A model generated the notes under the pieces. The model had not been told where the DNA came from and searched no databases. It saw only the letters and a program-made list of their open reading frames with translations. A stretch of 64,000 bases of DNA from Candidatus Uhrbacteria bacterium (GTDB lineage Bacteria; Patescibacteriota; Patescibacteriia; UBA9934; GWF2-40-263), in assembly GCA_037131775.1 (NCBI GenBank), contig JBAXQK010000002.1:23472-87471 (forward strand), read 5' to 3'. Below are positions 14,531-46,256 of this stretch, piece by piece. Within the stretch, counting starts at the first letter, position 1, and every line of letters starts with the position of its first letter. Made by a program: the position numbers and the translations under genes.

Positions 14531-14949
14531 ATTCGAGTGTCAACACCGAGTGTTGACAGGATGCGCGTCTGGCGCGGAAACATCTTCTTCGCGTCTTTCG
14601 GCTCGATATGGTCGTATCCGAACGTATGCAGAATACCGTGGACGATCAGGAACACCAGCTCGTCGCGCGTCGAATGCCCCATCTCCTTCGCCTGCCGGAC
14701 GGCCTGCGGATAGCAGAGCAGGATCTCGTTCGACGTCTCAAAAGAAAGCACATCGGTCACGTAGTCGTGCCCGCGCCACTTCTTGTTCAAGGCCCGCATC
14801 TCGCGCTCGCCAACGAACGCGATCGAGAGTTCGACGTCCTTCCGCGGCTTCAGCTCCGCGTCGCAAGCCGCCAGCGCCCTGGCAACCAAAGCGTGCGGCA
14901 GGCACTGGCCCCCTCGCAGCTTCGATTGATTTATCTCGAAGGAAATCAC
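14527..14949 (-). CDS. ybeY: rRNA maturation endoribonuclease YbeY
   Basis: The metal-binding motif HGILHTFGYDH is present. Confidence 0.9.
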   Translation of the reverse strand: MISFEINQSKLRGGQCLPHALVARALAACDAELKPRKDVELSIAFVGEREMRALNKKWRGHDYVTDVLSFETSNEILLCYPQAVRQAKEMGHSTRDELVFLIVHGILHTFGYDHIEPKDAKKMFPRQTRILSTLGVDTRI

Positions 14950-15986
14950 AGCCAGGTCACGCTATTGATCATCATCTTGAACGTCTGGAGATAGTCGACG
15001 GTCGCCTTGGCCGCCGTGGCCATCTTGATCGTCATGACGAAATCGGTCCCAAGGACATAGCCGGTCAACTGGTCCTCGCTGATAAATATCTGGTAACCGT
15101 TCTTCGTGACCGTCTTCGTGACGGCCGCCGTCAGCCCCTGGGCCTTGTACCATGCGGAAAGGTCGGAGACGAGGGCTCCTCCCCCCTTCGCGAGCGCGAT
15201 CGTAACGGTCTCTCCGGTGGTCGACACGATCGTGACCGGGCTGTCATTCGATTCCGACACGGCCGGCTTGACCGACCAGACCGCGGGATAAAACAGGGAG
15301 TAGGACAGATTGCCCGGAAGTTCGCGCGTAGAGACGGTCGGCCCTTGGTATACCTTCACGAGTCCTGCGGCATAAAGCGTTCCCGGGGACGTCCCTGCCG
15401 GGTTGTAGCGGTGGTACACCTCGTTCCCGTCCAGGAATCCGTCGGAGTCCGTGTCCGGAAGCTTCGGGTTCGTTCCATAGATGAGCGTCTCTTCCAGGTC
15501 GGACAGTCCGTCGGAGTCCGTGTCCTTTCCCGGGGCGACCGCCGTCGGGAACGGGCTTTCCGCGGGCTTGGGAGTCTCGACCGGCTTGGGAGTCTCGACG
15601 GGCTTGGGCGTGGGCTTCGGGACGGGGGTCGGCTTCACGACAGCCACCGGGACCTCGACGGGCTTCGCGACCGGCTTCTGCGTCCCGCTCACGATGACAA
15701 TTGCCGCGACGATGAGACCGACGATCAGGATTCCTCCCGCGCCGATCATGATTTTCATCCCCTTCGAGAGTTTCTTTTTCTTCGGCACCCCTGCGACGGC
15801 CGGATTCGCGGCAACCACCGGCGGAGCCGTCACGGGACGAGCCGCCGCTGCCGGAACCGCCATCTTCTTCCCCGTCGCGCCGTGCCGATATTCCTCCGGC
15901 ATCACGAACATCGCCGGTTCCGCGAGGGGAACGGTCGAGGTCAGCGGTTTCTCCAACTGTTGTTGAGGATTCGGCGCGTCAGACAT
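14946..15986 (-). CDS. type-II membrane protein with Pro/Val-rich stalk and TSP3-like Asp-rich repeats (paralog A)
   Basis: A single TM segment is followed by repeats DTDSDGLSDLEE and NPKLPDTDSDGFLDGNEVYHRYNP, then a C-terminal beta domain. Confidence 0.6.
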   Translation of the reverse strand: MSDAPNPQQQLEKPLTSTVPLAEPAMFVMPEEYRHGATGKKMAVPAAAARPVTAPPVVAANPAVAGVPKKKKLSKGMKIMIGAGGILIVGLIVAAIVIVSGTQKPVAKPVEVPVAVVKPTPVPKPTPKPVETPKPVETPKPAESPFPTAVAPGKDTDSDGLSDLEETLIYGTNPKLPDTDSDGFLDGNEVYHRYNPAGTSPGTLYAAGLVKVYQGPTVSTRELPGNLSYSLFYPAVWSVKPAVSESNDSPVTIVSTTGETVTIALAKGGGALVSDLSAWYKAQGLTAAVTKTVTKNGYQIFISEDQLTGYVLGTDFVMTIKMATAAKATVDYLQTFKMMINSVTWL

Positions 15987-15998
15987 ATGAAAGGTTCG

Positions 15999-16640
15999 TT
16001 ACGGGGTGGTGGTCGTTCCAAAAAGTTTTCCAGGGCCGTTCGGATTGTATCCCTTCTTCACCTCGGCGCCGTCGAGATACGTGTCGCCGTCGGTATCCGG
16101 GTTCAGCGGGTTCGTGTGATAGGTGTAAACCTCCTCCTTGTCGAACAGCCCGTCCGCGTCCGTGTCCGCAGAGGTCGGGCTCGTGCCAAGCTTGGCTTCC
16201 TCCGAGTCAGTCAGCCCGTCCTTGTCGCGGTCGACGATATCGGACATCGGCTTCGGCCCGTCCGTCACCACGTCCGGGACAACCGCGGCGTCATTCGAAA
16301 CGACGGGCGCCGGCTTCGTAACGACCGGAGGAGTCACGGCAGCCGGCGGAGTCACGATCGCTGGAGCGGCGACCGTCGACGTATCGGGCTCCACGGGAAC
16401 GGACGATCCCTTTGCCGCGAGCATGAAGTACGCGATGGCCCCCGCCGCGCCGACCACGACCAGGACCGTGGCGACGATAACGATCGGCTTCCACGAAACG
16501 GACCGAGGCGCGAACGGCATCGAATCCGATACGGGCATCGCCGGCGTCTCCGGAAGGTCTTTGGGAACTAGCGCAGACGGAGGGGCGATCGGCTCGACGT
16601 TAGCGAAGATATCCTCGGGGGGTTTAACATTCTCGAACAT
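15999..16640 (-). CDS. type-II membrane protein with TSP3-like Asp-rich repeats (paralog B)
   Basis: TM segment followed by DRDKDGLTDSEE and NPLNPDTDGDTYLDGAEVKKGYNPNGPGKL. Confidence 0.6.
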   Translation of the reverse strand: MFENVKPPEDIFANVEPIAPPSALVPKDLPETPAMPVSDSMPFAPRSVSWKPIVIVATVLVVVGAAGAIAYFMLAAKGSSVPVEPDTSTVAAPAIVTPPAAVTPPVVTKPAPVVSNDAAVVPDVVTDGPKPMSDIVDRDKDGLTDSEEAKLGTSPTSADTDADGLFDKEEVYTYHTNPLNPDTDGDTYLDGAEVKKGYNPNGPGKLFGTTTTP

Positions 16641-16650
16641 ATGGGAAGGT

Positions 16651-16688
16651 GGATACGAACCTACGAATTAGCTACGAAACTACGAACC
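16651..16688. repeat. family-B half-copy
   Basis: GGATACGAACCTACGAATTAGCTACGAAACTACGAACC was seen between the TSP3 paralogs B and C. It overlaps the stop of paralog C. Confidence 0.6.
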
Positions 16689-17489
16689 GAGTTTTCCGGC
16701 GCCGTTCGGGTTGTATCCGCCGTCGATCTCCACCTTGTCGGAGTAGCCGTCGCCGTCGGTGTCGGGATTCGTATCTGATGATCCGTATGACCGCTCCTCG
16801 TCCGCCATGAGCCCGTCAAGGTCAACGTCTCCGGTCCCAACAAGATCCGCGCAACGGCTCTGTTCCGTCTCATCGGAGAGCTCCAAGCATTTGCTCGGAT
16901 CCTTTGCCGCCACCGCCGCTTCGAACTGAGCGAGCTTGTCACAGACCGTCTGATCCGTTCCACGTTCCACACAGTTGGCCTCGGTAAGCGGACCGTCGAC
17001 CGAATTCCTGCATCCGTCTTGTTTGGCCGCGTCCTGAACCTTGTCGCAGAAAGAGGGGTCTTTCTGCGAGAGGGCAAGACGAACGTTGATCTGGTCGGAG
17101 CACATCTTCGCACGTTCGACGTCGGAAATCGCCGCGCAGCTCTCCGGATCCTCTCTGTCCTTTGCGACGGTCCAGACACAGGAGTCATGATCGGATCCAG
17201 TCAGCTGTTCGCAGACGGTCGACGCGCCGGTCGCCTTGGCCGCGAGCAACACCTTCTTGTTTCGACACTCCTCTGGGTCCGGTTCCTGAGCGCACCCAGC
17301 CAATGACGACGCAAGTTGCGTCTCAATGCGATCCATGTTCTGTGAAGCAATCTCCACTTTTTGGCGACTGCGCACGAACAGAACGGCCCCGATGATCAGC
17401 GCGACCGCAACTACCGCCGCCCCCGCAACGAGGGCGACGATTTTCCATGGCGGACGCGTCGAATCGGATGTTTGGTCGAAGCCGTTCAT
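16680..17489 (-). CDS. type-II membrane protein with Cys-rich region and TSP3-like repeats (paralog C)
   Basis: TM segment, a 12-Cys extracellular region, and a C-terminal NPDTDGDGYSDKVEIDGGYNPNGAGKL. Confidence 0.6.
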   Translation of the reverse strand: MNGFDQTSDSTRPPWKIVALVAGAAVVAVALIIGAVLFVRSRQKVEIASQNMDRIETQLASSLAGCAQEPDPEECRNKKVLLAAKATGASTVCEQLTGSDHDSCVWTVAKDREDPESCAAISDVERAKMCSDQINVRLALSQKDPSFCDKVQDAAKQDGCRNSVDGPLTEANCVERGTDQTVCDKLAQFEAAVAAKDPSKCLELSDETEQSRCADLVGTGDVDLDGLMADEERSYGSSDTNPDTDGDGYSDKVEIDGGYNPNGAGKLGS

Positions 17490-17493: not shown

Positions 17494-20400
17494 TTATGGT
17501 GCGGGACAATACGTGAAGTTGATGTTACTGAAGGTTACATATCCGGTTCCAGTAAAGGTCGTGGACATCGGGATGGACATGTCCGACCCGGTGCACTGGA
17601 AATCCGGCGGAAACGGAAGCGTCTTGTCATTGCCGTCCGAAACGTTTCCAGTCGTCGTCACGGACGTCCCGGTCGAAGATTCCGTCGTAAGTCCGACGGT
17701 CACATTGATGATCGAGCTGATAATCGAATCGTACATCCCGGCCACGCCGTCCTCGTCCTGGGCAGAGAACGCGTATGTGCCTGTCGTGCAGTCGTTGATA
17801 TCCGCATACAGATGTCCACACGTTTCGCTGGACATGTGTGCCATATACGATGCGTATACGTCGTCGGTCGTCGCCGTTATCGCGGCCGTGTAGACGCTGA
17901 CGTCACCGCTTCCGCGGACGGCTCCATTCTCATCGTCGGCCGAACAGGTGCTCAGCAGTCCTTTGTCGACCTGTTTTGTACAGCAGTAGTAATTGGACGT
18001 TGTTTCGTCATCGAGGGTGGTCGAGGCATCGTTGCCGCAGCTCGGATGCGTTGTACCATCCTCGCACACTCCGGCGGTGGTAGAGTTCGTACACATCGTA
18101 CTCGTCTTACTGATGTAGGTCTGTCCATCCGACAAAAGAATGATCAGTTTCACGTCAGCGGAGGATGCATCAAGCTCAGTAATCGCCGCCTTCATCCCCT
18201 GATAGATTGGCGGCCCCCAGCCAAGGTCTGACTCAAGCGCGTATCCTTCAACGGTTGCGATGAGATCATTTTCATCCATCGACCCGAGCGCCGCGTCGAT
18301 CGTATACCCATCCCCGCCATAAACGCCGGATCTAACTGCGGAACTTCCAATTCGCATGAGTCCGACTTGCAAATCGCCGGACGAGAGCGAGTCATAGAGC
18401 GTTTGAATGGCAGTAGACTCCGACGCACTGACGATATCCATGCGGCTATATCCCGACGGAGGAGTAGACGTACACGTTCCACCGGTCCCGCACTCAGAAG
18501 AAGTTGTGCAGTCCGTCCCGACGACGGCGGTTCCCGCTCCGTCACAATGATTATTCCCATCGACCCAGTCGCCCATGGTTCCCGTATAATCCGTAATGAA
18601 GTACACGGCCACGCTCGGCGGGGTCACGTTCGAGGTCGTGTCTACGTCGGCCGTGATCTGGGTTCCCACGCTGCATGCCGGGATGTACAGGACGGCGCTG
18701 TCCGGGTTCAAGTCAGAGTCGGACGGGTAGCTGTAGAGGTTGATGGTATCCGACGCCGTTCCGCCCGCCTCGCTGGTCTGGCCGAGGACGGAAACGGTCT
18801 GGTAGCTGAACGGGCAGGAGGTGGAGCAGGTAGAGTCGCAGGTTGGGACGACGCATTCCGAATCCGCCCCGCAGGCGTTCCTGTCCTCCGTCGTGCTCGT
18901 GTGACCGGAAACGACCGTGCAGCGTTCGCCTTGCTTGGATCCTCCATTGCACACCCCAAGCTCGCGACAGGTGAAACCGGAATCGCATCCCGCCGAAGAG
19001 CCTTCCGTTCCTTCATTGACGGAACCGCACGTTCCGCCGAGGTCCGTCGCGCTGGTGCCACCCTCGCCGTCCGCGTTGTCGAAGCAGTAAAACGGAATGT
19101 CCGCCCCGTCGCACAGCTCCGTGCCATTGATCGCGCCGTCGCCGCAGTAGGCGCCCGACTTGGTCTTGTACTGGCAGTTGATGGTGCAGTAGTGGCACAT
19201 CCCCTCGTAGACGGCCGTACAGTCGTCGCCGTTGAGCGATCCGTCGTCGCAGGATTCCACCCCGGAATAAACGAGCTCGTCGCCGCAGACGTTCGCCTTG
19301 CAGTCGTTGGTGCAGGCGTCGGTGTTGTCGGTGTTACCGTCGTCGCAGACCTCGGTGCCGTCGACCGTGCCGTTGCCGCAATAGTCGGCGCTGACGCATG
19401 CGGTCCAGGTTCCCCAGGTGCAGGCGGACGTCGAGCAGGTTTGGGAACGGGCGAGGTCGTAGACGACCGTTCCGCAAGAACCGTTGCCGTCCGCGAGGTT
19501 AATGGCGTCGCAGGACGTTCCGTCGACCTTCAGGCCGGTCGAACTGTCGCAGATGCTACCGGAGTCAATGTCGGTGATCGAGTCGGCGTTTCCATCCGTC
19601 GCGCACACCGTGCTCGATCCGCACGACGCTCCGCCGTCGCCGCAGGAAGAACCGTCGGTGCAGTCCGCGTTCGTCGTGCATTCCGTTGCGTCCGCGCACA
19701 GTGCCCCGGACCATTTCTGATAGCCGCCGTCGCACTGCTCGGACCCATTCACCTCCCCGTCACCGCAGCTCGGGCCGGGGCTCTTGCAGTCGTAGGAGCA
19801 CGTTCCGGTCGGGCTGGTGGCGTACTGTCCGTTCGAAACCGCGCAATGGTTGAGCCGTGCCCAGCTCGGGGTCGTATCATACATGACCGCCGTGAAGTTC
19901 GCCGAAACGCCGCAGTCGCACTGCTCGCCGCCGGCAAGGTAACCGTCGCCGCAGGAAAAGGCGGAAGTGAGGGTGCAGTCATCGCCGCAGTGGCCGTAGG
20001 TCCCGTTAAGAGACCCATCGTCGCAGGTCTCGGTCGCGCCGTCCACGACGCCGTTGCCGCAGGAGTACGGCGTACAGACGCCGCCCGCGGCGACCGCGGT
20101 CGTCTCGTCCTGGAACGCGGAGCAGTCGGATAGGCACGTTGCAAGCATCGTTCCTGCCACGCCGTCAGAATCCGTACAGTCGACGGTCGTCGTGTCCCCG
20201 ATCTCGCACGCCTCGTATCCCTCGGCGGACGGATCTGTTTCCTTCGTATTCACTACCCCGTCGCCACAGATCGACGACGTTCCAAGGGTCACGCCGTAGC
20301 AGAATGCGGCCGGGTCCGTAGAAGAGACGAAGTTCGTCGGCGAGGCCGTGCCGGACGGGTGGTACTCCGCGGTCACCGTGCCAAGCGTGGACGGATTAAG

Positions 20401-23400
20401 CTCCTTCGCCCAAGTTCCCGCATCGAACTCAAGCTCCGTCGACAGCTCGAAGGACGTGCCGCCGACGCTTCGGTAACCGTAGACATGGGACTCGTCGGGA
20501 CAGGTGAAGGTGGCCGCGACCGAGTTCCAGCAGGTGGCGGACTCGTAGTTCTCGCCGTCGCAATTCATGAACTCGTTCACCGGGTCGGTGGGAAGCGACG
20601 TGCCGAGCGCGTTGCCAAGCCCCGCCGTCCACGACGGCCAGGTGCTTGTGGAGTACGAGCTGACAAAGGTGCCGTCCGCGAGCTTCGGAACGGAAGGCTC
20701 GCACGTTTCGGTTCCCGGACACTCGTCGTCCGCCGTACAGGTCTGGTTCGTGGTCACCGAGCAGAGGCCGTTCGCGGCGCCGTAGCCGTCGAGTTCGCCC
20801 GCGATCACGACGACGTCCTCCAGGCGGCGCATGTCGCGCGTGAGCTTGGCCTTGTCGGCGTCGCAAATTTGGCCGGAGGCGCAGTCGCCGTCCCAGACGC
20901 ACGGAATGAGGTCGCCCGTGGTCACGTCCGTCGGATAGCTTCCGTCCGTGCTCGACTGGCAGAGGTTGATGTCCGTGACGACGTCGTCATTGGCGTTGAA
21001 CGACCAGTTCGCCAGGATCTGCGCGAAAATTTCCTGCGAGGAAGCCTCCGCGTTCTCCGTATAGGAGATGGCGTACACGTTCGGGTAGATGGTCCCGGAA
21101 TTGGTGACGTTCGTGGCCGCGACGTACGTGGTGTTGCCGTCCGTGATCGCCTCGTAACCGTCTACCGTCGTGCTCGACGGGGATCCTCCGGTGAATCCCT
21201 GCGCGACATACCAGGCGGACGGGGTGAGGTACGAGGAATTCGGAAGCACACGGACGCCGATGGCGTCGGAAGTTCCCTCCACCTTGAAGATCAGGTCCTG
21301 GATGATGTCGGACGTATAGGATTCGACCGCGATTGGCGTCTCAAGCTCGGGAAGATCGTCGGTTGTGTCCTTCGCCACGCCGGCATCCTGGCAGTAGAAG
21401 AAGCTGAAATTTGAGTCGGCATCGAGATACAGGCCGTTCGAATTCTCGACGGTCGGGACGTTGTCGCAGACGTTTACGACGACCTTCAGGGTTCCGCTTA
21501 CCCCTCCGCTCGTTTCGCCGAAGGTGTTGGTCGCGCTGAACGCCGCGGTTGCCACGACGGATTCCTGGCCCGTCTTGTCGGAAGCGGTCACGGTGGATGC
21601 GGCGTCCGTCGAACTCGCCGACGAAACGATGTTTTCCGTATCCGCGTCAATGACGGTCGAGTCCCACGTCCAGCTCCAGCCGTAGCTCGCCGTCGGCTGA
21701 ATTTCCTCCTCGCGCCCGCCACGGACGGTGTTTGGAATCGACACGAACGCGTGCTGCTCGCCGGAAGCCGTGAACGATCCGACGCTTGGGTCGACGATGT
21801 CGCTCGCGGGAGTCACGCCCGTGTCCTCCACGGTCACGGAATCAAGACCGCAAATTTCCGTACCCGTCTGAAAGGTTACCGCGTATTTACCGTCCGGCGC
21901 CCCATTCGCGTCTACGCCAACGGCATGGGCGGAAAGAACGCCGTCGTTCAGGCCGTCGACCGCGTCGGTCAGGTCGGCGTCCTCCACCACGACAAGGGTG
22001 TAGTAGGAATTGGCCTCCAGAACGTCCGTAATGTTGAGCGAGACGCGCGAGCCGCCGAACTCGTTCGCCGTCAGCGAGTACGTCACGGGAGTCAGGCAGT
22101 AGGCCGTCGTATCCGCGGCCTGCGCGGTTCCACCGAACATGCCCGTGACGGAACGCACGACCCAATTCCAAGCGCGCGCGATCCACGAACGGCTCGCCGT
22201 GTCGCCGTACGCAAGCAGGCTTGCCTGGAGATAGCCGGACGGACAGTCGGCAATGTCGATCGCGTCGCCCGTCGACGTCGTCAGGGCGAGGTACAGGTTC
22301 TGGTGGCCTTCGCCGTAATCGAATACGCCCGTGTTCGGTCCCGCCGTATCGTCCCACGACATCAGCGAATTCGAGTCCATCACGTCCGAGAAGTCCACGT
22401 AGATCGCCGCGTTCAGGCACACGTTCGTCTCCCCGATTCCCTGGGAAACGGCCTCGACGGTCGGGCGCTCGAAGCAGCAGGAGGATGTCCCGCAGCCGTA
22501 CGCGTCGTCGCCGCACTGCGCATCGTTCTCACAGGAACAGGTCAGCGTAAGCGTTCCGCTTCCCTCCACGCCGCTCGTCGTTTCCGTTGCCGTAATCGAC
22601 GACTCCGCCGTGTGCGTGGTCGCGTCCACGTCCAAGACCGCCTCTGGATTCACGTAGGAGACGCCCCAATATCCAAAGGCGGTATCCCCGGACGGATCCG
22701 TTGCCGCGTCGCACTCCTCGGCACCCGTGTCAATGACAGCCCCGTTATACTCGTTCGTCCCCGTACGATGCGTCGTACCGTCGCCGCAGTAGCTCGACGT
22801 GCCCAATGACGATCCCTCGTCCACGCAGGATGAGGAACACCCGTCTCCGTTCGTGGTATTGCCATCGTCACAATCCTCGGCGCGAGGGCTCCAGGCGCCG
22901 GTTACGCCGCGGTAATCAATGCGTCCGTCGCCGCAGCACGGCGAAACGACAGGGAGACAGGCATCGGTGGCGCTTCCGCAGTATGTCGACGCGTCGGCCC
23001 CGATTCCCGGACAGTCGCTGGTGGGATTGTCGCGACAGGCGAACGCGCAGACGTTTGCCCCCTCAAACAGACAGATCGAAGAACATCCGTCTCCGCTGGC
23101 AACGTTGCCATCATCGCAGTCCTCACCGGAATCGATGTTGCTGTTTCCGCAGATTGAATTGTATCCGGAACGAGCCACGGTTCCCTCGTTCAGACAGTCA
23201 GAAGAGCATCCCGCGGTGCCGTCGCAATCCTCGCCTCCGTCGCTCGCCGACTGGTCGACAGTCGATCCGTCGCAGGAGGTGCCGGCCTTTCGCGCTCCGT
23301 TATTCAGACAGACGGAAGAGCATCCGTCGGAGTTGTCCGTGTTCGAGTCGTCACACTCCTCTCCGGTTCCGACCGCGCCGTCGCCGCACACGCTCGGGGA

Positions 23401-26400
23401 GCGGTAGTCCGCCGAAGCTCCCTCGTGCAGACAGGTGGTCGTGGAACACCCTTCTCCCCCGTCGCAATCCTCTCCTGGCTCCACCAGGCCGTTTCCGCAG
23501 AAATAGTCGCTTGTGGTCGCCTCCGATCCCGTGTTCAGGCAGTTCGAAGAACATCCGGTCTGAAGAACGGAAGTGATGCGAAGCGGGTCGGACGCGCTGT
23601 TCAGCATGGTCGCGACGTCGCCAAGGGAGGGGCCGGTCGCGTCGACGGCAGTCCACGCGTCCCAGCCGTAGCTCAGCGGGTCAAGCTCCTGGCCGTTCAC
23701 GGAGCAGCTGTCCCGGGCGCCGAACGGAATGGCCTGCCAAAGCGCCTCCTCGCCGATATGCGTTGCGGACGAAGATTTCGGGTCGGTCTCAATCCGATCG
23801 ACCGCGCACGGCTCGTCGGAATCCTTGGTCTTGAATTTCCAAGAAAAGTCGTTCGAGAACTCAGAATACCCGTTGTCCTCGGAAGGATAGTTGCTTCCCG
23901 ACTCCGACAGGGCCACGCCGGAGAGCGATTCGACGTCTCCGGAAATCACGACGCGGTACCAGGTGTTCTTGGTAAAGGGCTCCGAGTGCGTGAAGGTGAC
24001 GGACCTCGAGTCGGCGGAAAGGTCATACGAGACCACGTTGTCCCAGAGCGTCATCTCGCCCGAGTCGGTCGAGCAGAGCGAATCCTGGCAAGAGTAGATC
24101 GTGACGGTGCTGTCGGAAAAATTTTTCGATCCCAAAGCTGTCTCGTCCGCCATGACCGTGTTGAAGTCGGCGGTAATCCCTCCGTTCAAACACACCGAAT
24201 CGCAGCTCGGCGTCCAGCTGGTGACCTCCGGGTCGGTGAAGTTGATCGTAAGCTGTCCGGCGTCGCTCGGCTCGTCGCCCGTCGGGTTCACGGCCTGCGC
24301 GGTGATGTCTACCGGGGATCCGCTGGTGGTTTCGGCGATGGCGGTGGCGAGGGTGGCGCAGGAGCCGGTCGCGGAGGTCGTCGGTTCTACCGACGCAAGC
24401 TGCGACTGCGAGGAGTCCCACGTCCAGCCGTAATTCGTGCAATCCAACGCGACGCAGAAGTCATTCTGCGACAGCGCCAGTGCCGAATACGATTGGGTCT
24501 GCCCAGCCTCCGTTATCGTGTGCGCGGACGGACTGACGACGACGGATCCGATGTTACACGGCTCGGTCGTGGCGGCGGTCGTAAACGTCCAGGAATAGTC
24601 GTTCGCCATGAAGATTCCGTCCTCCGACGTAATTCCCGCGGCGTCGAGGGTCACGGTATACGTGGCGCTCGGCAGGAAGTCGCCTCCCGTCGGACTCCAG
24701 CTGAACGTATATCCGCCCGGCGTTTCGCCGTCCGCCATCACTCCCGCGATGTCCGCGCCGTCCGGATCCGTGACGTGGAGGTACGGGGCAAGGTCATCCC
24801 ATTTCATCATCGGCATGTCGAACGTCGCCGTGACGGCGGCGTTCACGCAGATGTTCTTCGACTCGCTCCAATTGTTCCACGGTGACGGGGACGTAACCAC
24901 GCCCTCGCTGCAGTCGACGACCACCTTCGGCGTCGCGGGAATCGTGGTGGTCGAGAACATCCAGGAGTAATGCGACTCCTGGGGCTCATCCGCGCAGATG
25001 GCCGCGCATTGACCGTTCGAGCAGCAGCTCGTTCCCTCTACGTCGCAGAAACCGTCGCCGTCGGCCAGACAGCTTCCAACCTTGAAATTCAGCTCGTTCG
25101 ATCGATACCCATTCGCGTCGGTCACGTACACGGGTCCGGTTTCGGCCGAGGCGGGCACGGTTGCCGTGACGGAAGAGAGCGACGAGTCCCAGCTCAGGAC
25201 GGACGCGCTTTCGGAAGACGAGAACGTCACGGACGCGGATCCCGTGTGCCTTCCGAGGTTGTCGCCCGCGATGTCGACGTTCGTGGTGGTCACGGGCCCC
25301 GAGACAGGATCAAGATTACAGATGCCCGGGCCCGGAGTGTCGTCGAGAACGGTAAAGTCCGTCGCCTCCGACGAGGCCGATCCCGTCTCGACGGTAAGCG
25401 AGTACGTCGCACCGAGCCCGATCGCCGAGCCGTCCGTGAACGTCGCGGGAACCTTCACGATGATTTCCGTATCGCCCCACGTGTCGGATCCGCAGGCCTC
25501 CGGAAAATCCGTATCGCCCCACGCGACGCTTCCGCTGGTGTCCTGCGCGGAAAAATGGACCGTGCCGGCCGTCGAGCCGAATCCGGTTCCGTTGATGGTC
25601 ACGTACTGCCCGATCGGCCCCCACGTGTCCTGGTCGTCGCACGTGTCTCCCGGATTGACCGCGGAACAGTCCGCATCGGCCGAGCAGCGGGTTCCCATCG
25701 CCTTGCATGCGGTCCAGCCCGAAACGACGGACGCGATGACCGGAGTGGTTCCTTCGGACGAGTCGACGACGGTGAATGACACCTTGTTCGATCCCTGGCG
25801 CAGCGAAACGCAGGATCCGTCCGTTCCGCAGTCGGAGTCCGTCTCGCAGAATGCGTCGGAACCGGAGCAGCGCATGGTTGCGCACGATTCGCCTGATGTC
25901 GTGTCACAGTCCGCGTCCGTCGCGCATGTGACCTGTGGCGTCACGGCCCCCTGGGTCGTCGCGCAAACGTAATCCCCCACCCAAACCTGAGTGTCATAAT
26001 CGCGAGCGTTCAGGAGCGGAACCTGGACGGATAGCGCGGCGGAGGCCCAGCTGTAGTAATCCGATGCCTCGTAGTTTCCAAAGTAGACCGTCGAGGTCCC
26101 TTGGCTCGATTCGCTCGATGAGGTGAAATTATTTCCCGAGAGTCCGACCGTCGAGTGACCGATTCCGGACGTCGGATCCGGCGGACACAGACCCGGACGC
26201 ACCACGGAGTTCACGTCAAAGTCACTGACGGTAGCCCCGTAGTCGTCGTTGGTGGCGTCGACGTACGCGTCGGGATGGGTCGCGTCGGTTCCGGTCGTGA
26301 CGCGAATCGGGCCGTCCTTCATGGAACCGGAAACCTGGACGATAATCTGCGTGTCCGTCCAGGTGGAACCGGTCTCGCACTGGTACTCGGACGCGGTCAC

Positions 26401-27882
26401 GGGGTTCGAGTACGTACCGTTCGTGTCGACGGCGCCAAGGAACTGCACGGTTCCCGGCGTCGATCCAAAACCGCTTCCAATGATGGAGATGATGTTTCCT
26501 TCCGTTCCATCGCCAGGCGAAACAGAGGTGATTTCCGGAACGCTCTCGCAAACGCCATCGACGACAAGTCCCGTCTCGGGATCAATTTCTCCGGAGCAGT
26601 ACCCGCTCGAGCAGTCGGCATTGGACGTGCACGGCGACCCGTCGCACGCGCCGCACTCGCTCGTTCCGCCGCAGTCGCCAGGCGGATCCGCCTCGCCATT
26701 GTTTGCAACGCCGTCGTTGCAGGAAGCGGGATAGACCTCAATGCTTACCCCGGAAGACGTGCTGGCGTGTCCGGCACAGTCCGTTCCCCTTGCGCGAATG
26801 GTATGGCTTCCCGTCGCGTAATCCGAAGAGACATACCACTCCGATCCGTCCGCGGTCGAGAAAAAATTTTCCGACGAAAGGGATCCGGCGGTCGAGTCCG
26901 TCGAGAGCGCCGCGTCGTAGATCGAATCCCCGTTGTCGATCGTAAAGGCAAGGCTCGAGACGCCCGTGTCGTCGACCGTGTACGCCTGCAGCGGTCGGAT
27001 CTCGTTCGTATAGACGGCCGATCCTTCTTCCGGGGCCGAAATTTCCATCGTGGTCGGGCCTTCCGTGTCCACGGCCGTCCCGGTCGTGAAGTCGAACGAG
27101 CACGGGTATGTCGTGTCGCACTTGTACGCCAAATCCGTCGAGCTCTTCAACGTTGTCGTACTCAGCTCAATCGTATAATCCGCGCCCGCGTCATAGCAAT
27201 GCTCGGTCGGAAATCCATCGGCGGAACAGTCCTGCGTCGGGGTGAACGTGGCCACCGTTCCGGCAACGGCGAACGTTCCCGGGACGTCCGTTCCAGACTG
27301 CTGTACGCGGATCCCACCATTGTTAATGGATTCGAGGCTGGGACTTTTACTGAAGGTAAACTGCAGGTTTACGTTTTTAATCGCGTACGCGCACTCGAGG
27401 TTGACGTCCGTCAAGACGAATTGACTCGACGTGCCTCCCCCGTCGCCGTATCCCCCGCCGTTCCCGCCGCTGCCCGACGACGTGCTCGTCCCGTTCAGTG
27501 CGCCCATCAGCTGGCCGAGGATAAACTGGACGATGGCGAATGCGGAAAGAATGATGACGAGACCGACGATCGCCGACGAGAACAGTTTCTTCGCGCTCTT
27601 GATCTTGTCGTCGTTCCCTCCCGACGTCATGTAGCGGAACCCCCCGACGAGAATCAGGACGACGGCGATGATGCCGAGGATCGAGATGACCGTTCGAATG
27701 AGCCTGGCGATGGTGATCGTGAGCGTCTCGCCCGTCGCAAGACCCGCGGTTTCCGCGAAGGAGCTCAGTCCCGAGGTCGGGTCCACGACCTGCGCGAACG
27801 CATGCGGGGCAATCGCAAGAGCTCCGACCGTTACGAAGACGGCAAAGAGGATCGAGAGCAGGCTCTTGCGGGAAAATATCAT
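17494..27882 (-). CDS. giant secreted/surface protein (3462 aa) with an N-terminal pilin-like module, IPT/TIG and Ig-like domains, Cys-rich repeats and a C-terminal vWA domain
   Basis: A 10.4 kb stop-free ORF. It has an N-terminal signal peptide plus a VirB2/TrbC-like two-helix module, then a Gly-rich linker. Further domains are IPT/TIG (ITSVSPGDG...GSGFG), many C-x-C-DDGN-x-NGDGCS-x-C repeats, and a C-terminal vWA domain (KLIILLSDGQ). Confidence 0.85.
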   Translation of the reverse strand: MIFSRKSLLSILFAVFVTVGALAIAPHAFAQVVDPTSGLSSFAETAGLATGETLTITIARLIRTVISILGIIAVVLILVGGFRYMTSGGNDDKIKSAKKLFSSAIVGLVIILSAFAIVQFILGQLMGALNGTSTSSGSGGNGGGYGDGGGTSSQFVLTDVNLECAYAIKNVNLQFTFSKSPSLESINNGGIRVQQSGTDVPGTFAVAGTVATFTPTQDCSADGFPTEHCYDAGADYTIELSTTTLKSSTDLAYKCDTTYPCSFDFTTGTAVDTEGPTTMEISAPEEGSAVYTNEIRPLQAYTVDDTGVSSLAFTIDNGDSIYDAALSTDSTAGSLSSENFFSTADGSEWYVSSDYATGSHTIRARGTDCAGHASTSSGVSIEVYPASCNDGVANNGEADPPGDCGGTSECGACDGSPCTSNADCSSGYCSGEIDPETGLVVDGVCESVPEITSVSPGDGTEGNIISIIGSGFGSTPGTVQFLGAVDTNGTYSNPVTASEYQCETGSTWTDTQIIVQVSGSMKDGPIRVTTGTDATHPDAYVDATNDDYGATVSDFDVNSVVRPGLCPPDPTSGIGHSTVGLSGNNFTSSSESSQGTSTVYFGNYEASDYYSWASAALSVQVPLLNARDYDTQVWVGDYVCATTQGAVTPQVTCATDADCDTTSGESCATMRCSGSDAFCETDSDCGTDGSCVSLRQGSNKVSFTVVDSSEGTTPVIASVVSGWTACKAMGTRCSADADCSAVNPGDTCDDQDTWGPIGQYVTINGTGFGSTAGTVHFSAQDTSGSVAWGDTDFPEACGSDTWGDTEIIVKVPATFTDGSAIGLGATYSLTVETGSASSEATDFTVLDDTPGPGICNLDPVSGPVTTTNVDIAGDNLGRHTGSASVTFSSSESASVLSWDSSLSSVTATVPASAETGPVYVTDANGYRSNELNFKVGSCLADGDGFCDVEGTSCCSNGQCAAICADEPQESHYSWMFSTTTIPATPKVVVDCSEGVVTSPSPWNNWSESKNICVNAAVTATFDMPMMKWDDLAPYLHVTDPDGADIAGVMADGETPGGYTFSWSPTGGDFLPSATYTVTLDAAGITSEDGIFMANDYSWTFTTAATTEPCNIGSVVVSPSAHTITEAGQTQSYSALALSQNDFCVALDCTNYGWTWDSSQSQLASVEPTTSATGSCATLATAIAETTSGSPVDITAQAVNPTGDEPSDAGQLTINFTDPEVTSWTPSCDSVCLNGGITADFNTVMADETALGSKNFSDSTVTIYSCQDSLCSTDSGEMTLWDNVVSYDLSADSRSVTFTHSEPFTKNTWYRVVISGDVESLSGVALSESGSNYPSEDNGYSEFSNDFSWKFKTKDSDEPCAVDRIETDPKSSSATHIGEEALWQAIPFGARDSCSVNGQELDPLSYGWDAWTAVDATGPSLGDVATMLNSASDPLRITSVLQTGCSSNCLNTGSEATTSDYFCGNGLVEPGEDCDGGEGCSTTTCLHEGASADYRSPSVCGDGAVGTGEECDDSNTDNSDGCSSVCLNNGARKAGTSCDGSTVDQSASDGGEDCDGTAGCSSDCLNEGTVARSGYNSICGNSNIDSGEDCDDGNVASGDGCSSICLFEGANVCAFACRDNPTSDCPGIGADASTYCGSATDACLPVVSPCCGDGRIDYRGVTGAWSPRAEDCDDGNTTNGDGCSSSCVDEGSSLGTSSYCGDGTTHRTGTNEYNGAVIDTGAEECDAATDPSGDTAFGYWGVSYVNPEAVLDVDATTHTAESSITATETTSGVEGSGTLTLTCSCENDAQCGDDAYGCGTSSCCFERPTVEAVSQGIGETNVCLNAAIYVDFSDVMDSNSLMSWDDTAGPNTGVFDYGEGHQNLYLALTTSTGDAIDIADCPSGYLQASLLAYGDTASRSWIARAWNWVVRSVTGMFGGTAQAADTTAYCLTPVTYSLTANEFGGSRVSLNITDVLEANSYYTLVVVEDADLTDAVDGLNDGVLSAHAVGVDANGAPDGKYAVTFQTGTEICGLDSVTVEDTGVTPASDIVDPSVGSFTASGEQHAFVSIPNTVRGGREEEIQPTASYGWSWTWDSTVIDADTENIVSSASSTDAASTVTASDKTGQESVVATAAFSATNTFGETSGGVSGTLKVVVNVCDNVPTVENSNGLYLDADSNFSFFYCQDAGVAKDTTDDLPELETPIAVESYTSDIIQDLIFKVEGTSDAIGVRVLPNSSYLTPSAWYVAQGFTGGSPSSTTVDGYEAITDGNTTYVAATNVTNSGTIYPNVYAISYTENAEASSQEIFAQILANWSFNANDDVVTDINLCQSSTDGSYPTDVTTGDLIPCVWDGDCASGQICDADKAKLTRDMRRLEDVVVIAGELDGYGAANGLCSVTTNQTCTADDECPGTETCEPSVPKLADGTFVSSYSTSTWPSWTAGLGNALGTSLPTDPVNEFMNCDGENYESATCWNSVAATFTCPDESHVYGYRSVGGTSFELSTELEFDAGTWAKELNPSTLGTVTAEYHPSGTASPTNFVSSTDPAAFCYGVTLGTSSICGDGVVNTKETDPSAEGYEACEIGDTTTVDCTDSDGVAGTMLATCLSDCSAFQDETTAVAAGGVCTPYSCGNGVVDGATETCDDGSLNGTYGHCGDDCTLTSAFSCGDGYLAGGEQCDCGVSANFTAVMYDTTPSWARLNHCAVSNGQYATSPTGTCSYDCKSPGPSCGDGEVNGSEQCDGGYQKWSGALCADATECTTNADCTDGSSCGDGGASCGSSTVCATDGNADSITDIDSGSICDSSTGLKVDGTSCDAINLADGNGSCGTVVYDLARSQTCSTSACTWGTWTACVSADYCGNGTVDGTEVCDDGNTDNTDACTNDCKANVCGDELVYSGVESCDDGSLNGDDCTAVYEGMCHYCTINCQYKTKSGAYCGDGAINGTELCDGADIPFYCFDNADGEGGTSATDLGGTCGSVNEGTEGSSAGCDSGFTCRELGVCNGGSKQGERCTVVSGHTSTTEDRNACGADSECVVPTCDSTCSTSCPFSYQTVSVLGQTSEAGGTASDTINLYSYPSDSDLNPDSAVLYIPACSVGTQITADVDTTSNVTPPSVAVYFITDYTGTMGDWVDGNNHCDGAGTAVVGTDCTTSSECGTGGTCTSTPPSGYSRMDIVSASESTAIQTLYDSLSSGDLQVGLMRIGSSAVRSGVYGGDGYTIDAALGSMDENDLIATVEGYALESDLGWGPPIYQGMKAAITELDASSADVKLIILLSDGQTYISKTSTMCTNSTTAGVCEDGTTHPSCGNDASTTLDDETTSNYYCCTKQVDKGLLSTCSADDENGAVRGSGDVSVYTAAITATTDDVYASYMAHMSSETCGHLYADINDCTTGTYAFSAQDEDGVAGMYDSIISSIINVTVGLTTESSTGTSVTTTGNVSDGNDKTLPFPPDFQCTGSDMSIPMSTTFTGTGYVTFSNINFTYCPAP

Positions 27883-27888
27883 AGCGCG

Positions 27889-29793
27889 CTAATTGGAAGA
27901 TTCTGGATTTGAGTCTGGAAGTTCCACGGTCGCCGGAGTCGTAAGCGTCGTATCAAGATTTGTCGTGTGGCAGGCCCTTTCGGATGGAAAGCCATTGCAG
28001 CAATACCTGGCCGTCGTCGTGCTCGTTCCGCACATCCCCGTTCCGGCCGCGTTCGGACCGTCCACGGGATACGCGCAGATTTGGTACGCGGACTTCACGT
28101 CACGCGTAATGACCGGGTCGTAGTCCCATCCGTTGTCCTCGTTGCTGACAAGACCCGGATGCGCGATCTCCACGGTCGTGTTGATCGTCTCGTCGTCGAC
28201 GACCAGGTCCGTCTTGCTCGTCGTAAACCAGAACTCATACCACGGGTCTGCCCACAGCGAGACGTTTGTCGTATTGAGCGTCGAGGATTTCATCGGAACG
28301 GAGAACGTCGCGGTTACGTTCGCCGACGGCGATGACAGCCCCTCGAGGATGCCCGGATGCATCTCGGTAATGGTCGGGACGGTGTCGTTTATCTCGTCGT
28401 TGGTCTGGAATCCCCAGACGTAGTTATCGTCGTCGGGACCCGTCCCCTCGTCATCGCCGTTTCCGTCGAGCGAGTTCGCGGACGCGTCCTCCAGGCCGTT
28501 TGCCGGCACGAAGATCGGATCGGCCTGCGGCGGCTCGTCGCCGACGCTCGCCGCCTTGGCCGTGACCTCGATCGCGTTCGTGCTCGCGCTGCCGCCCGGA
28601 GCCGGAAGGCAGTAGATGGTGTCGCCGCACGGATCGACGCCGCACGCCTCGGTCGGCGTGAACTCGATCGTCTTGTACGCGTTGGAAATTGAGAACGTCC
28701 CGTCCACGTATCCGCTCGCCGCGGTCGAGGAACCGACGGTGATGTTGCTGAACGTCTGCGTCGGGTTCGGATTTGACTCCGTCGGCGCCACGTACGTCCC
28801 CGTTCCGGCCACCGGGTCCATCGCCTCGTCGAACGTGATGGAAACGGTGATGTTTCGCGCATCGGTGGCGGAGGCACGCGGGATGACGGACACGACCTTC
28901 GGAGGAGTGAGGTCGACCTCCGTGGAAACCTCGAACGTCCACTCGTACCCATCCTGATTCGACGCGGTGAACGCGGCCGTTTTGTCCGCCTTCTTGATGC
29001 TGTTCGTCAGTTTGACGGTATAGTTCGTGTCGTCCGTCGAGCTGCCAAGGAGATCGACCGGGTCGAAGACGAAGATGGTGTGATCCGCGTTCATGGTCAC
29101 GGAAACGGCGCTTGCCCCCAGCTTCAGCGTATCCACGCTCGCCTCGTCCGCGGTCTTGTAGATCAGAACGTTCGCGGAATTCAGATCGGTGGAAGTCGGG
29201 CTCAGGTCGTAGCCGGAGATGATCGAGGCCGGATCGATCGGCTCCTTGAACGTCACCATGATGCGCGTGTTGCGCGGAATGCCGATCGCGTTGCGCTCCG
29301 GATAGTGCGACTCGATGATGCCCGCGCCGAGCGATCCGGAAAGCGGCTCGCTGTACCGGTCGGCGACGGACGTGCTTCCCGTCGCACCGCCCCAGTTGTC
29401 CAGCAGGCTGTTCAGGATGTAACTCGCGATCGTGAACGAAAAGATACAGAGGATCATTCCGATCACTCCGTTCTTGATCATGTCCTTCGCCTTCTTCAGC
29501 TTGGTGTCGTCGCCCTGCGCCGTCATGTAGATCCATCCGGCATAGAGGACGACGATCGTGAAGATGATCCCGAGCGTTCCGAGGAAGACGCGGATGACCT
29601 TCGCGATGATGATCGGCAGGCTGTTGGTGGACGCGCCGGCAGCCGCGGCCGACGTGGCGAGCTGCGTCGCCGCGCTCTGGACGGACTGCGCGAGCGCTGG
29701 GTGCGCGGCGGCAATAACGCAAACGGCGAGCACGCCAAAGGCGGCTCCGGCGGCGAGGCGGCTGCGCATAGTGTTTGGGAGAAAACGCATCAT
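27889..29793 (-). CDS. secreted protein (634 aa) with an N-terminal pilin-like two-helix module followed by SbsA/Big-type Ig-like domains
   Basis: The signal peptide ends AAHPALAQ. It is followed by helix-loop(GDDTKLKKAKD)-helix and Ig-like repeats (PPKVVSVIPRASATDARNITVSITFDEAMDP). Confidence 0.7.
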   Translation of the reverse strand: MMRFLPNTMRSRLAAGAAFGVLAVCVIAAAHPALAQSVQSAATQLATSAAAAGASTNSLPIIIAKVIRVFLGTLGIIFTIVVLYAGWIYMTAQGDDTKLKKAKDMIKNGVIGMILCIFSFTIASYILNSLLDNWGGATGSTSVADRYSEPLSGSLGAGIIESHYPERNAIGIPRNTRIMVTFKEPIDPASIISGYDLSPTSTDLNSANVLIYKTADEASVDTLKLGASAVSVTMNADHTIFVFDPVDLLGSSTDDTNYTVKLTNSIKKADKTAAFTASNQDGYEWTFEVSTEVDLTPPKVVSVIPRASATDARNITVSITFDEAMDPVAGTGTYVAPTESNPNPTQTFSNITVGSSTAASGYVDGTFSISNAYKTIEFTPTEACGVDPCGDTIYCLPAPGGSASTNAIEVTAKAASVGDEPPQADPIFVPANGLEDASANSLDGNGDDEGTGPDDDNYVWGFQTNDEINDTVPTITEMHPGILEGLSSPSANVTATFSVPMKSSTLNTTNVSLWADPWYEFWFTTSKTDLVVDDETINTTVEIAHPGLVSNEDNGWDYDPVITRDVKSAYQICAYPVDGPNAAGTGMCGTSTTTARYCCNGFPSERACHTTNLDTTLTTPATVELPDSNPESSN

Positions 29794-29873
29794 CGAGACG
29801 CTTATTTCGTCGCTCTCATTCTACAACAAAACCGCGTGCACGGATACACGCGGCATTTGAAAGTCTGTGGATA

Positions 29874-30614
29874 TCACCCGAGCTTCTGAATCGTCGCGGT
29901 CGCGATGGCAATGAGCCCCGCCATGAGGATCGTTCCGAAGATTCCGACGCCGATCTGCTGGAGGCCGTGATGGTGTCCGTGGTCGCGTCCCGACGACGTC
30001 ATCACGGTCACGGCGCCCATGATGATGAACAGGACGGACACGAGACCCATGAGCATGAGGAACACGCGGGCGATGCGCGCGCCGGACACGATCATCGACG
30101 CGTCCTTCGCGGCAGCGACCGTGGCGGCGAGCGCCGGATGCGCGTGCGCGAATCCGACGGCGGCGACGACGGACGCCGCGAGGATCGACTCGACGACCGC
30201 CTTCACGCGCGATCCGTCGGCGCGTCCTCCCACGGCCTTCATCGCCGCGCCCATCGCCTTCCCCGTGTCGGCCTTCGTCGTGGCCCCGGCGATCTGCAGC
30301 GCGTCCTTCACCACCTGCGACAGCGTCACGTCGTCCATCTGCGTCGGGAGATATTTCTCCAGGAGCGCGATCTCCTTCTTCGCCGCCTCGACCGTCTCGG
30401 GACGCCCCGCCGTCTCCGCCACGTCGCTCGCCTCGCGCAACTGCTTCACCTGCATCTTGATAATGGCGACGACGTCCTCGTCGGCAAGTTCCTTCTGCGC
30501 GTCGATCTCCTTGTTCTTCACCGCGGACTTCAGCATCCGCAGCGTGGAAAGGGTGTCCGCGTCCTTGGCCTTCATCGCTTCCTTCAGGTCGTTTGAGATT
30601 TGTTCGATAAGCAT
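29874..30614 (-). CDS. yqeY: YqeY/GatB-domain protein fused in-frame to a C-terminal pilin-like (signal peptide + two-helix) module
   Basis: The N-terminal 150 aa match YqeY (MLIEQISNDLKEAMKAKD...KAMGAAMKAVGGRADGSRVKAVVESIL). The C-terminal 100 aa carry AHAHPALA plus two hydrophobic helices, paralogous to the N-termini of the next two genes. Confidence 0.65.
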   Translation of the reverse strand: MLIEQISNDLKEAMKAKDADTLSTLRMLKSAVKNKEIDAQKELADEDVVAIIKMQVKQLREASDVAETAGRPETVEAAKKEIALLEKYLPTQMDDVTLSQVVKDALQIAGATTKADTGKAMGAAMKAVGGRADGSRVKAVVESILAASVVAAVGFAHAHPALAATVAAAKDASMIVSGARIARVFLMLMGLVSVLFIIMGAVTVMTSSGRDHGHHHGLQQIGVGIFGTILMAGLIAIATATIQKLG

Positions 30615-30620
30615 ATTGGT

Positions 30621-30653
30621 TTGATTATAACACAAAAGGGATCGAAGGGGTCA
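30621..30653 (-). promoter_or_regulatory. strong extended -10 promoter (TGACCC-18-TGtTATAAT) giving a near-leaderless transcript
   Basis: On the minus strand the sequence ctgaccccttcgatcccttttgtgttataatcaaaccaatATG was seen. The -10 ends about 10 nt before the start codon at 30614. Confidence 0.5.
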
Positions 30654-30717: not shown

Positions 30718-30963
30718 CTACCGTCGTCCTCCGGTCTTTCGCGGCTCTTCCACGAACTTTCCGGCCTTGATCAGATACTCGCGGTCATCCTTGATTTCCA
30801 ATCGGCGGAGCGCGCTGGCGCGGCCGCGGTTGCGGGTCGGATCCTTCTTGTGGAACCGAAGCTTGCGCGCCTCGAGCATGTTTCCACTCTGCTGGATGCG
30901 TCGCGAAAAGCGGCGCAACAGCGATTCGAAGCTTTCTCCTTTTCGGCGTTTTACGTCTACCAC
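30718..30963 (-). CDS. rpsU: 30S ribosomal protein S21
   Basis: The N-terminus matches S21 (VDVKRRKGESFESLLRRFSRR). It has a GTG start with an AAGGAAGGTGA Shine-Dalgarno. Confidence 0.85.
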   Translation of the reverse strand: MVDVKRRKGESFESLLRRFSRRIQQSGNMLEARKLRFHKKDPTRNRGRASALRRLEIKDDREYLIKAGKFVEEPRKTGGRR

Positions 30964-46206: not shown

Positions 46207-46256
46207 GCCTGCGTCCGTAAAGGCGCACGCCGCGAGCGATCAGTCTGAATCAGCTT

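Follow-up and report, generated by a model that had tools for sequence, protein, structure and literature searches.

Homologous pilin-like hairpins in three neighbouring genes of Uhrbacteria, at the foot of two large proteins and behind YqeY

The DNA analysed here, called the window below, is a stretch of 64,000 nucleotides from a contig (JBAXQK010000002.1) of Candidatus Uhrbacteria, a bacterium that is tiny and uncultured, and our analysis of this genome is confined to it. Three neighbouring genes of its minus strand, which we call A, B and C, encode proteins of very different lengths: gene A (29874-30614) has 246 amino acids, gene B (27889-29793) has 634, and gene C (17494-27882) has 3462. 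All three carry the same module: a signal peptide, an AxA site, a helix, a charged loop and a second helix. A first-pass annotation, made from the sequence of the window, had described three adjacent co-oriented genes sharing such a module, and translation of the open reading frames (ORFs) returns its coordinates exactly, as well as the loops SGRDHGHHHG, GDDTKLKKAKD and GGNDDKIKSAKK and the cleavage contexts AHPALA and APHAFA. The genes and their parts are the following, with the basis of each assignment in brackets.

29874..30614, minus strand: gene A, YqeY-hairpin fusion, predicted polyprotein precursor (translation and Pfam YqeY)
30180..30614, minus strand: YqeY (GatB/YqeY) domain of A, amino acids 1-145, cytoplasmic (Pfam PF09424)
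30126..30179, minus strand: internal signal-peptide-like hydrophobic segment of A, amino acids 146-163, ending A-L-A (homologue alignment)
29877..30125, minus strand: predicted mature 83-amino-acid hairpin of A, amino acids 164-246 (AlphaFold and homology)
27889..29793, minus strand: gene B, hairpin-anchored, with tandem immunoglobulin-like (Ig-like) domains (Pfam T4SS_pilin and two Big_5)
29689..29793, minus strand: putative Sec signal peptide of B, amino acids 1-35, cut after A-L-A35, before Q36 (sequence)
29401..29625, minus strand: hairpin module of B, amino acids 57-131 (Pfam, profile search, AlphaFold)
27892..29346, minus strand: ectodomain of B, amino acids 150-634 (AlphaFold)
17494..27882, minus strand: gene C, hairpin-anchored giant surface protein (Pfam T4SS_pilin, Big_5, four DUF4215)
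27793..27882, minus strand: putative Sec signal peptide of C, amino acids 1-30, cut after A-F-A30, before Q31 (sequence)
27499..27726, minus strand: hairpin module of C, amino acids 53-128 (Pfam, profile search)
17497..27492, minus strand: ectodomain of C, amino acids 131-3462 (composition)

The three modules are homologous. In pairwise blastp comparisons those of B and C share 36% identity, with an expectation value (E) of 2.6e-19, and that of A matches them with E 2.4e-8 and 7e-7, respectively. We took 113 full-length relatives of A and made a hidden Markov model (HMM) of their C-terminal extensions alone; searched against the 662 six-frame ORFs of the window, it finds besides A itself C (E 1.2e-13, amino acids 21-127) and B (E 7e-13, amino acids 32-139). 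No fourth carrier appears among these ORFs: the next match has E 2.6, despite the many other membrane proteins of the window, and a broader profile of the module again returns just A, B and C. When hhalign compares the extension family with the B, C and small-pilin modules, the last from relatives, it gives a probability of 98.9%, with E 2.7e-17 over 104 columns, and the module stays in register throughout, from the signal peptide and AxA site to both helices and their loop. The mutual similarity on which the first-pass annotation was built thus goes beyond generic hydrophobicity.

The copies are not equally close. The core regions of B, C and the small-pilin modules are mutually 39-46% identical, B and C being at 46%, and the copy in A, the most divergent of the three, has 20-22% core identity to B, C and the small pilins. 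A recent duplication of the module of B or C as the source of the small copy is unsupported, with about 21% core identity set against the 46% of B and C. Homologues of A have invariant Arg and Gly positions in the hairpin. The loop of A (window 29970-30000, amino acids 208-217) is rich in His, a feature nearly invariant in a subclade of at least 62% identity, while other members show RD followed by mixed charges; this loop may serve in metal or pH sensing.

The gathering score of the Pfam family PF18895 (T4SS_pilin) is 26.6 bits, and two of the three proteins exceed it, B with 27.9 bits (amino acids 57-126) and C with 35.6 bits (amino acids 53-121). A itself has no match to PF18895, Pfam giving YqeY alone. 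Its orthologous extensions, scanned alone, match PF18895 in 10 of 29 cases (best E 3.3e-5), and no other family appears in more than three of the 29. By these profile scores B and C are members of PF18895, and A is a remote member of the same VirB2-like family of Patescibacteria. Precomputed Pfam annotation names only PF09424 in the 120 homologues of A listed. Since nothing else is called in A or in any of these, the hairpin of A is invisible to routine domain annotation, and domain surveys miss a whole subfamily. The NCBIfam model NF045849 (Mbov_0395 pilin-like conjugal transfer protein) aligns with B (E 2.2e-9) and C (E 2.3e-6) at 36.8 and 27.2 bits, below its cutoff of 40 bits, and does not match A; to judge from these scores, B and C are related to that family but are not members of it.

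Links to the classical conjugative pilins are fainter. PF04956 (TrbC/VirB2) is precomputed in 5 of 120 orthologues of B; it matches none of the window proteins, and one orthologous A extension at E 0.22. A profile of the B/C module finds no match among PDB sequences at E up to 10, and hence no solved pilin. The fold of the A hairpin, compared with the PDB by Foldseek, retrieves generic helical hairpins only (best E 0.29), in pore-forming toxins, ESCRT-III and chemoreceptors, with no pilin in the top 50. Kinship of the module with classical VirB2 is weakly indicated, by topology and weak profile links. The Pfam comparison that the first-pass annotation had proposed comes out divided, favourable for PF18895 in B and C, indirect for A, and negative for PF04956. 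Its reading of the topology, VirB2/TrbC-type and not type IV pilin, holds: there is no class III G/FTLIE signal, AxA sites and two transmembrane (TM) helices being found instead, and B and C fall in PF18895. A type IV pilus is ruled out for want of that signal and of Pil genes; no PilB, PilC or PilD gene lies in the window, and the match to PilM is FtsA. The hydropathy of the modules shows three hydrophobic segments only, with Lys-rich loops. As for size, a stand-alone pilin of about 100-150 amino acids is not what proteins of 246, 634 and 3462 amino acids represent; the only pilin-sized forms are the predicted 83-amino-acid product of A and the split genes of two relatives, L022 and L083.

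Gene A deserves a closer description. Its PF09424 domain is full-length, amino acids 4-145 aligning with positions 2-143 of the 143 of the profile (E 1.3e-41). The first-pass annotation had seen in this protein a C-terminal hairpin unit, which is indeed there, and had left out that the N-terminal 145 amino acids are a YqeY domain. Unfused YqeY relatives stop at 142-147 amino acids, which rules out that they keep a C-terminal anchor. The predicted mature hairpin of A has, in order, a short outside segment with an invariant RIxRV motif, a TM helix, the SGRDHGHHHG loop and a second TM helix. AlphaFold models the small hairpin as helices 25-65 and 70-104, with a predicted local distance difference test score (pLDDT) of about 90, and gives the extension of A as a helix followed by a break (pLDDT below 50) that falls exactly at the AxA site.

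At the internal site of the 113 homologues of A, position -1 is always Ala, position -3 is Ala in 87, Val in 21, Thr in 3 and Ile in 2, and position -2 is variable; the hydrophobic segment before the site is also variable, with 14-22 amino acids, and the predicted product has 78-92 amino acids across the homologues. An invariant Ala at -1, a small set of residues at -3, a free -2 and a variable segment together make up the signature of signal peptidase I. The fusion is kept in more than 100 homologue clusters of 235-290 amino acids, from 94% down to 39% identity, and in 19 species-level genomes; the closest relative among genomes, CAIMOJ010000028, stands at 94%.

In two relatives the fusion is split. 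In Uhrbacteria RIFCSPHIGHO2_01_FULL_63_20 (L022, 9995-10665), yqeY encodes 147 amino acids, and its stop codon is overlapped (ATGA) by a hairpin ORF of 76 amino acids that begins just before the RxxR motif, the signal segment being lost. In L083 (3548-4246), a YqeY of 148 amino acids is followed, after 6 nucleotides, by a hairpin gene of 81 amino acids without signal segment, and further on by B (625 amino acids) and C (3460 amino acids). An exhaustive profile search finds further hairpin-only proteins of 72-92 amino acids. From the split genes it follows that some lineages use the hairpin as a polypeptide of its own and that YqeY can do without the anchor; they are also the forms that a cleavage model of A predicts. 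The small unit, which the first-pass annotation called pilin-sized, thus has genes of its own, of 76-81 amino acids, in at least two relatives. Assuming that the internal site is used, gene A encodes a precursor of two proteins, and we conclude from the alignments that A is probably a polyprotein cut at the internal AxA site. We found no literature linking YqeY with Patescibacteria or with pilins, and the "giant genes" preprint does not cover this topic. A small hairpin copy fused behind YqeY, with an invariant predicted internal site and natural fission forms, is new.

The signal peptide of B ends in an invariant A35, followed by a nearly invariant Q36, in 42 orthologues. Its ectodomain would consist of a disordered linker, all-beta tandem Ig-like domains and a C-terminal part containing Cys; Pfam recognizes T4SS_pilin and two Big_5 domains in the protein. 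The AlphaFold model, based on 42 orthologues, has a pLDDT of 80, exceeding 90 for most of amino acids 160-620, and a predicted template modelling score (pTM) of 0.71. This structure prediction is a confident one, and according to it B carries an Ig-like rod. The Ig-like chain finds its best Foldseek matches in two S-layer (surface-layer) proteins, SbsC and Sap, and in the Ig-like domains that L,D-transpeptidases carry; the similarity is to generic Ig-like domains in tandem, and the TM-scores for the whole chain are 0.15. A phmmer search with B finds no match among PDB sequences, and neither does one with C. Across 43 orthologues the mean pairwise identity is 49% in the hairpin of B, 42% in the ectodomain and 23% in the signal peptide. 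Judged by these identities, the conservation of the hairpin exceeds the need of a plain anchor. There are 386 homologues of B; the best 120 are all 578-662 amino acids long and are named "hypothetical" or "Ig-like domain-containing protein", and every hit with an informative source name belongs to Uhrbacteria or Patescibacteria, save one labelled Chloroflexi.

In C, A30 is invariant among the aligned sequences, and hydrophobic segments are confined to the first 130 amino acids. The ectodomain contains 9.4% Asp, 2.7% Lys and Arg, 35% Ser, Thr and Gly, and 5.1% Cys, with CG[DN]G repeats; the domains recognized are T4SS_pilin, Big_5 and four DUF4215 repeats (Pfam), together with the cysteine-rich acidic repeat TIGR02232. 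By its composition, the body of C is clearly extracellular. Its C-terminal 500 amino acids or so (window 17497-19005) show von Willebrand A-like motifs, TDYTGTM ... LIILLSDGQT, with no Pfam call; a homologue search with the C-terminal 503 amino acids gave one match, low-complexity words filling the candidate list.

The order yqeY, B (about 640 amino acids) and giant C is conserved in about 50 species-level Uhrbacteria genomes, the orthologues of C having 2400 to more than 2790 amino acids, most of them running off the end of the fetched locus. Next to the B-C pair, yqeY is fused at 19 loci, split at one (plus L083) and plain at about 30. About 30 of the roughly 50 loci have B and C and no small hairpin next to yqeY, and at about 25 every kind of small hairpin gene is missing from the locus. 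At 4-5 plain loci B and C are separated by one more small gene, a canonical pilin; those of L029 (8735-9247), L040 (7065-7439), L044 (12412-12849) and L045 (12439-12837) encode 125-171 amino acids without YqeY fusion. The fusion also occurs away from B and C, on one low-GC contig labelled Lentisphaerae GWF2_44_16 (L021, 9995-10750), where it is followed by a cobalamin adenosyltransferase-like gene; this contig is probably mis-binned Patescibacteria. The conserved order yqeY-B-C, with or without fusion, is new, and so is the conserved pairing of an Ig-like with a giant protein, both footed on a hairpin, in genomes that may lack a secretion machine.

Other proteins carry 2-8 VirB2-like hairpins behind one signal peptide, with linkers of about 25-35 amino acids: P0242 has six, P0323 eight, and P0257, P0258 and P0265 are further cases. 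The examples include 552 amino acids with six hairpins and 820 with eight. As read from their sequences, such proteins amount to natural covalent oligomers, or "poly-pilins", of which there is no mention in PMC12102498 or PMC10633639.

We now turn to the surroundings of the three genes, where the following features bear on their expression and possible partners.

30718..30963, minus strand: rpsU (ribosomal protein S21), directly upstream of yqeY (Pfam Ribosomal_S21, E 7e-7)
29831..29854, minus strand: terminator-like hairpin followed by TTTGTTGT, between A and B (consensus scan, pattern match alone)
16680-17489, 15999-16640 and 14946-15986, minus strand: three single-pass TSP3-repeat membrane proteins (Pfam TSP3_bac; one TM helix each)

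Upstream of A lie lepB, hisS and rpsU. The pair rpsU-yqeY is a usual one, and yqeY has this usual neighbour here. A TATAAT box, spotted by eye about 10 nucleotides before the ATG of yqeY (window 30615-30640, ttgtgttataatcaaaccaatATG), suggests by its position that the leader of yqeY is very short or absent. On the 3' side of gene A, the terminator-like hairpin (29854-29831) has 10 pairs, 6 of them G-C, and a T-run; since it follows A, the gene may not be co-transcribed with B and C, and is perhaps transcribed apart from them. From B through ftsA and ftsZ all genes have the same orientation and are tightly packed, from which we infer their co-transcription. The co-transcription with cell-division genes proposed in the first-pass annotation can thus be retained, as an inference, from B onwards, with A perhaps set apart by the terminator-like hairpin. 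The first TSP3 gene begins 4 nucleotides past the stop codon of C; all three membrane proteins of 14946-17489, between C and ybeY, have TSP3-type calcium-binding repeats, and they are possible envelope partners. Downstream of them come ybeY, dgkA, ftsA, ftsZ, nrdR, htrA and pyk.

Elsewhere in the 64 kb the genes are housekeeping ones: ABC transporters, topA, relA/spoT, parAB, scpAB, aminoacyl-tRNA synthetases, recO, map, adk and secY. Five tRNA genes are present, three clustered on the minus strand at 46.1-46.5 kb (46133-46474) and the others at 607-681 and 33408-33481. An island of 1.5 kb (58130-59600) with 35-39% GC, against about 62% around it, sits between adk and secY, inside the conserved secY-adk-map operon. 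Its four minus-strand ORFs have 184, 113, 96 and 85 amino acids, the first with two hydrophobic segments, and nothing significant is found for them in Pfam, PHROGs or PADLOC; by its composition the island looks like horizontally acquired DNA.

As to a possible dependence of the hairpins on a type IV secretion system (T4SS), genes for VirB4, VirD4, VirB6, prgI, PilB, a secretin or a pilus ATPase are all lacking within the window, in agreement with the first-pass annotation, which had noted neither assembly ATPase nor secretin. Quinonero-Coronel et al. (2025; PMC12102498) report PF18895/VirB2-like pilins in 1948 VirB4-positive Patescibacteria assemblies, describe 441 arrays in which 2-11 divergent pilin genes share a mean identity of about 25%, find related arrays near virB4 in 1135 assemblies, and place the T4SS of Patescibacteria as kin to the monoderm MPF-FATA class. 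Of 36 RIF genomes of Uhrbacteria in their Table S1, 18 are listed with VirB4, and the four carriers of the fused or split gene that the table includes (RIFCSPLOWO2_01_FULL_47_17, RIFCSPHIGHO2_01_FULL_63_20, RIFOXYB12_FULL_58_10 and CG10_..._48_16) are all listed without it. In Southlakia, a pilin array inside the T4SS cluster is essential (Wang et al. 2023; PMC10633639). A 2025 review treats the possible pili of monoderm systems as an open question.

In the likeliest reading, a hairpin anchors each of the surface proteins B and C, and a small partner is cleaved from A. The locus would be a conserved chromosomal set of Uhrbacteria (class ABY1) encoding three paralogous VirB2-like hairpins. B and C would be exported by Sec and cut by signal peptidase I; their hairpins would lie in the cytoplasmic membrane with both ends outside and the loop in the cytoplasm, and their ectodomains would stick out from the cell, making B and C surface proteins of an adhesin-like or coat type. 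In A, the hydrophobic segment after YqeY would act as an internal signal peptide, and a cut by signal peptidase I after Ala163 would yield a tail-anchored YqeY and a free hairpin of about 83 amino acids. The hairpins would then associate laterally in the membrane as a hetero-oligomeric foot, a step suggested by the conservation of the hairpin, which no other part of B equals, and by the concatenation of 2-8 hairpins elsewhere. Such a foot would operate without a T4SS in these genomes, because the 64 kb hold only housekeeping genes besides and VirB4 is listed in 0 of 4 carriers (PMC12102498). Taken as a whole, with the feet of B and C and the cleaved small hairpin packed side by side and no T4SS needed, we judge this reading evenly balanced between true and false.

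Several observations weigh against it. The four VirB4-negative genomes are incomplete assemblies and make only four data points, and in the present genome the absence of a T4SS was checked for the window only. The name of the family and the essential Southlakia array (PMC10633639) indicate that some members do work with a T4SS. The conservation of the hairpin fits recognition by an assembly machine equally well, and A and the B-C pair occur apart, so that nothing in the data demands that the three be physical partners.

This last observation also suits an account in which the three modules are independent ordinary anchors without any partnership, the YqeY fusion being a neutral accident or an uncleaved three-helix tether of YqeY. 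The hairpin fold is generic, and YqeY always adjoins B, so that a duplicated piece of B, from its 5' end, could fuse to it by chance. However, the AxA site is invariant throughout the 113 homologues, and the segment before it varies; what the split forms have lost is precisely the signal segment, which leaves YqeY anchorless, so tethering of YqeY is not required; the hairpin, with its invariant Arg and Gly, is more conserved than ectodomain or signal peptide; and the fusion persists from 94% to 39% identity. We consider this account unlikely.

The first-pass annotation had proposed a filament with the small unit as major subunit and the large proteins as minor or tip subunits. In its present form the proposal is a VirB2-like pilus, for whose assembly another part of the genome would supply the T4SS, with B and C as minor or tip pilins bearing adhesive bodies. 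The termini of conjugative pilins both face the exterior of the pilus, which makes a C-terminal fusion geometrically possible. The family is annotated as T4SS pilin, and related arrays are found in the essential Southlakia cluster and, in 1135 assemblies, near virB4; some relatives have the small unit as a gene of its own, 4-5 relatives have extra small pilin genes between B and C, and the hairpin is strongly conserved. The proposal fares badly on the locus itself: about 25 of some 50 loci have B and C and no small hairpin gene, and about 30 none beside yqeY; the presumed major subunit is the most divergent copy (about 21% identity); a terminator-like site separates A from B; and one relative has the fusion without the large genes. 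No T4SS gene or pilus ATPase lies within the 64 kb, VirB4 is reported absent from half of the Uhrbacteria genomes and from all four listed fusion or split carriers, and solved pilins are found neither by sequence nor by fold. We hold a T4SS-built pilus, which nothing positively supports, distinctly improbable.

A bolder form of the hairpin-anchored reading supposes a surface organelle independent of T4SS: a membrane-embedded or extruded hairpin oligomer that would bear the Ig-like rod and the giant adhesin, its small subunit being cut from the YqeY polyprotein of the rpsU-yqeY transcript. We regard it as a long shot, on a par with the T4SS-built pilus. If true, the "T4SS pilin" family of Patescibacteria would primarily be a self-assembling envelope scaffold, and its use in secretion one case.

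B and C might also be structural, S-layer-like coat proteins rather than adhesins, with the hairpin as a tie between coat and membrane. Structurally B comes closest to SbsC and Sap, it is a conserved core protein of uniform length with 42% ectodomain identity in 43 orthologues, and a place beside cell-division genes would fit, the locus being packed with three TSP3 membrane proteins, ftsA and ftsZ. Yet the matches are to generic tandem Ig-like domains, with whole-chain TM-scores of 0.15, there is no sign of lattice formation, and a giant, Cys-rich, acidic C is unlike known S-layer subunits; we find the coat very doubtful. Finally, an artefactual gene A, with yqeY joined to a small downstream gene by a frameshift or lost stop, as the split version in two relatives could suggest, has practically no chance of being right, refuted as it is by the same open frame in two independent assemblies of the strain, in more than 100 homologue clusters and in 19 species-level genomes, and by split forms that are deletions of the signal segment and not single frameshifts.

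VirB2-like pilins are among the most expanded families of Patescibacteria and essential in the one species tested. On the question of what they build, the present locus offers handles, namely hairpins with large ectodomains, a series of fused, split and absent small copies, and genomes reported without VirB4; together they make the need of the family for a T4SS directly testable.

It remains to compare the locus with known systems. The first-pass annotation had called it a candidate novel locus, which as a kind it is not: VirB2-like pilins and arrays of 2-11 genes have been described (PMC12102498, PMC10633639), and tandem paralogous VirB2-like hairpins in Patescibacteria are already known. The family is the same for B and C, and remotely for A; so are the phylum, the signal peptide followed by a hairpin, and the divergent paralogues side by side. 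However, the members described are small, stand-alone and often beside virB4, whereas here the hairpin is the foot of proteins of 634 and 3462 amino acids or stands behind YqeY, the surrounding genes are housekeeping and cell-division ones, and related carriers are listed as VirB4-negative. Neither the YqeY fusion nor the giant fusions are mentioned in the two papers.

The resemblance to NF045849, from Mycoplasma integrative and conjugative elements, is that its 80-position profile spans the whole hairpin of B and C, and that both come from wall-less or single-membrane bacteria, which fits the kinship with MPF-FATA (PMC12102498). Its proteins differ in being small and located on conjugative elements, and the scores of B and C stay below its cutoff. 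With VirB2, TrbC and TraA the module shares the Sec signal peptide, the signal peptidase I site, the two helices, the short basic loop and both ends outside. A motif G-x-x-Y/W-M-T/G before the loop is also common to both. The window proteins differ in having no PF04956 match, no match to a solved pilin, no cognate T4SS in the window, and no sign of cyclisation or C-terminal processing.

For the predicted cleavage of A, two parallels can be named: the FbcH cytochrome b-c1 precursor of Bradyrhizobium japonicum, a polyprotein split at an internal signal peptide, and F-pilin TraA, with its long leader of 51 amino acids. Both are like A in having an upstream part, a hydrophobic segment, a signal-peptidase site and a membrane protein that is released, as is predicted in A; unlike theirs, the upstream part of A is a soluble housekeeping protein, YqeY, with no known link to the envelope. 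The ectodomain of B, for its part, shares an all-beta Ig-like chain with SbsC, Sap and Big_5 proteins, a similarity at the level of domains only. Those proteins attach through SLH or cell-wall-binding domains, whereas B would attach through an N-terminal pilin-like hairpin.

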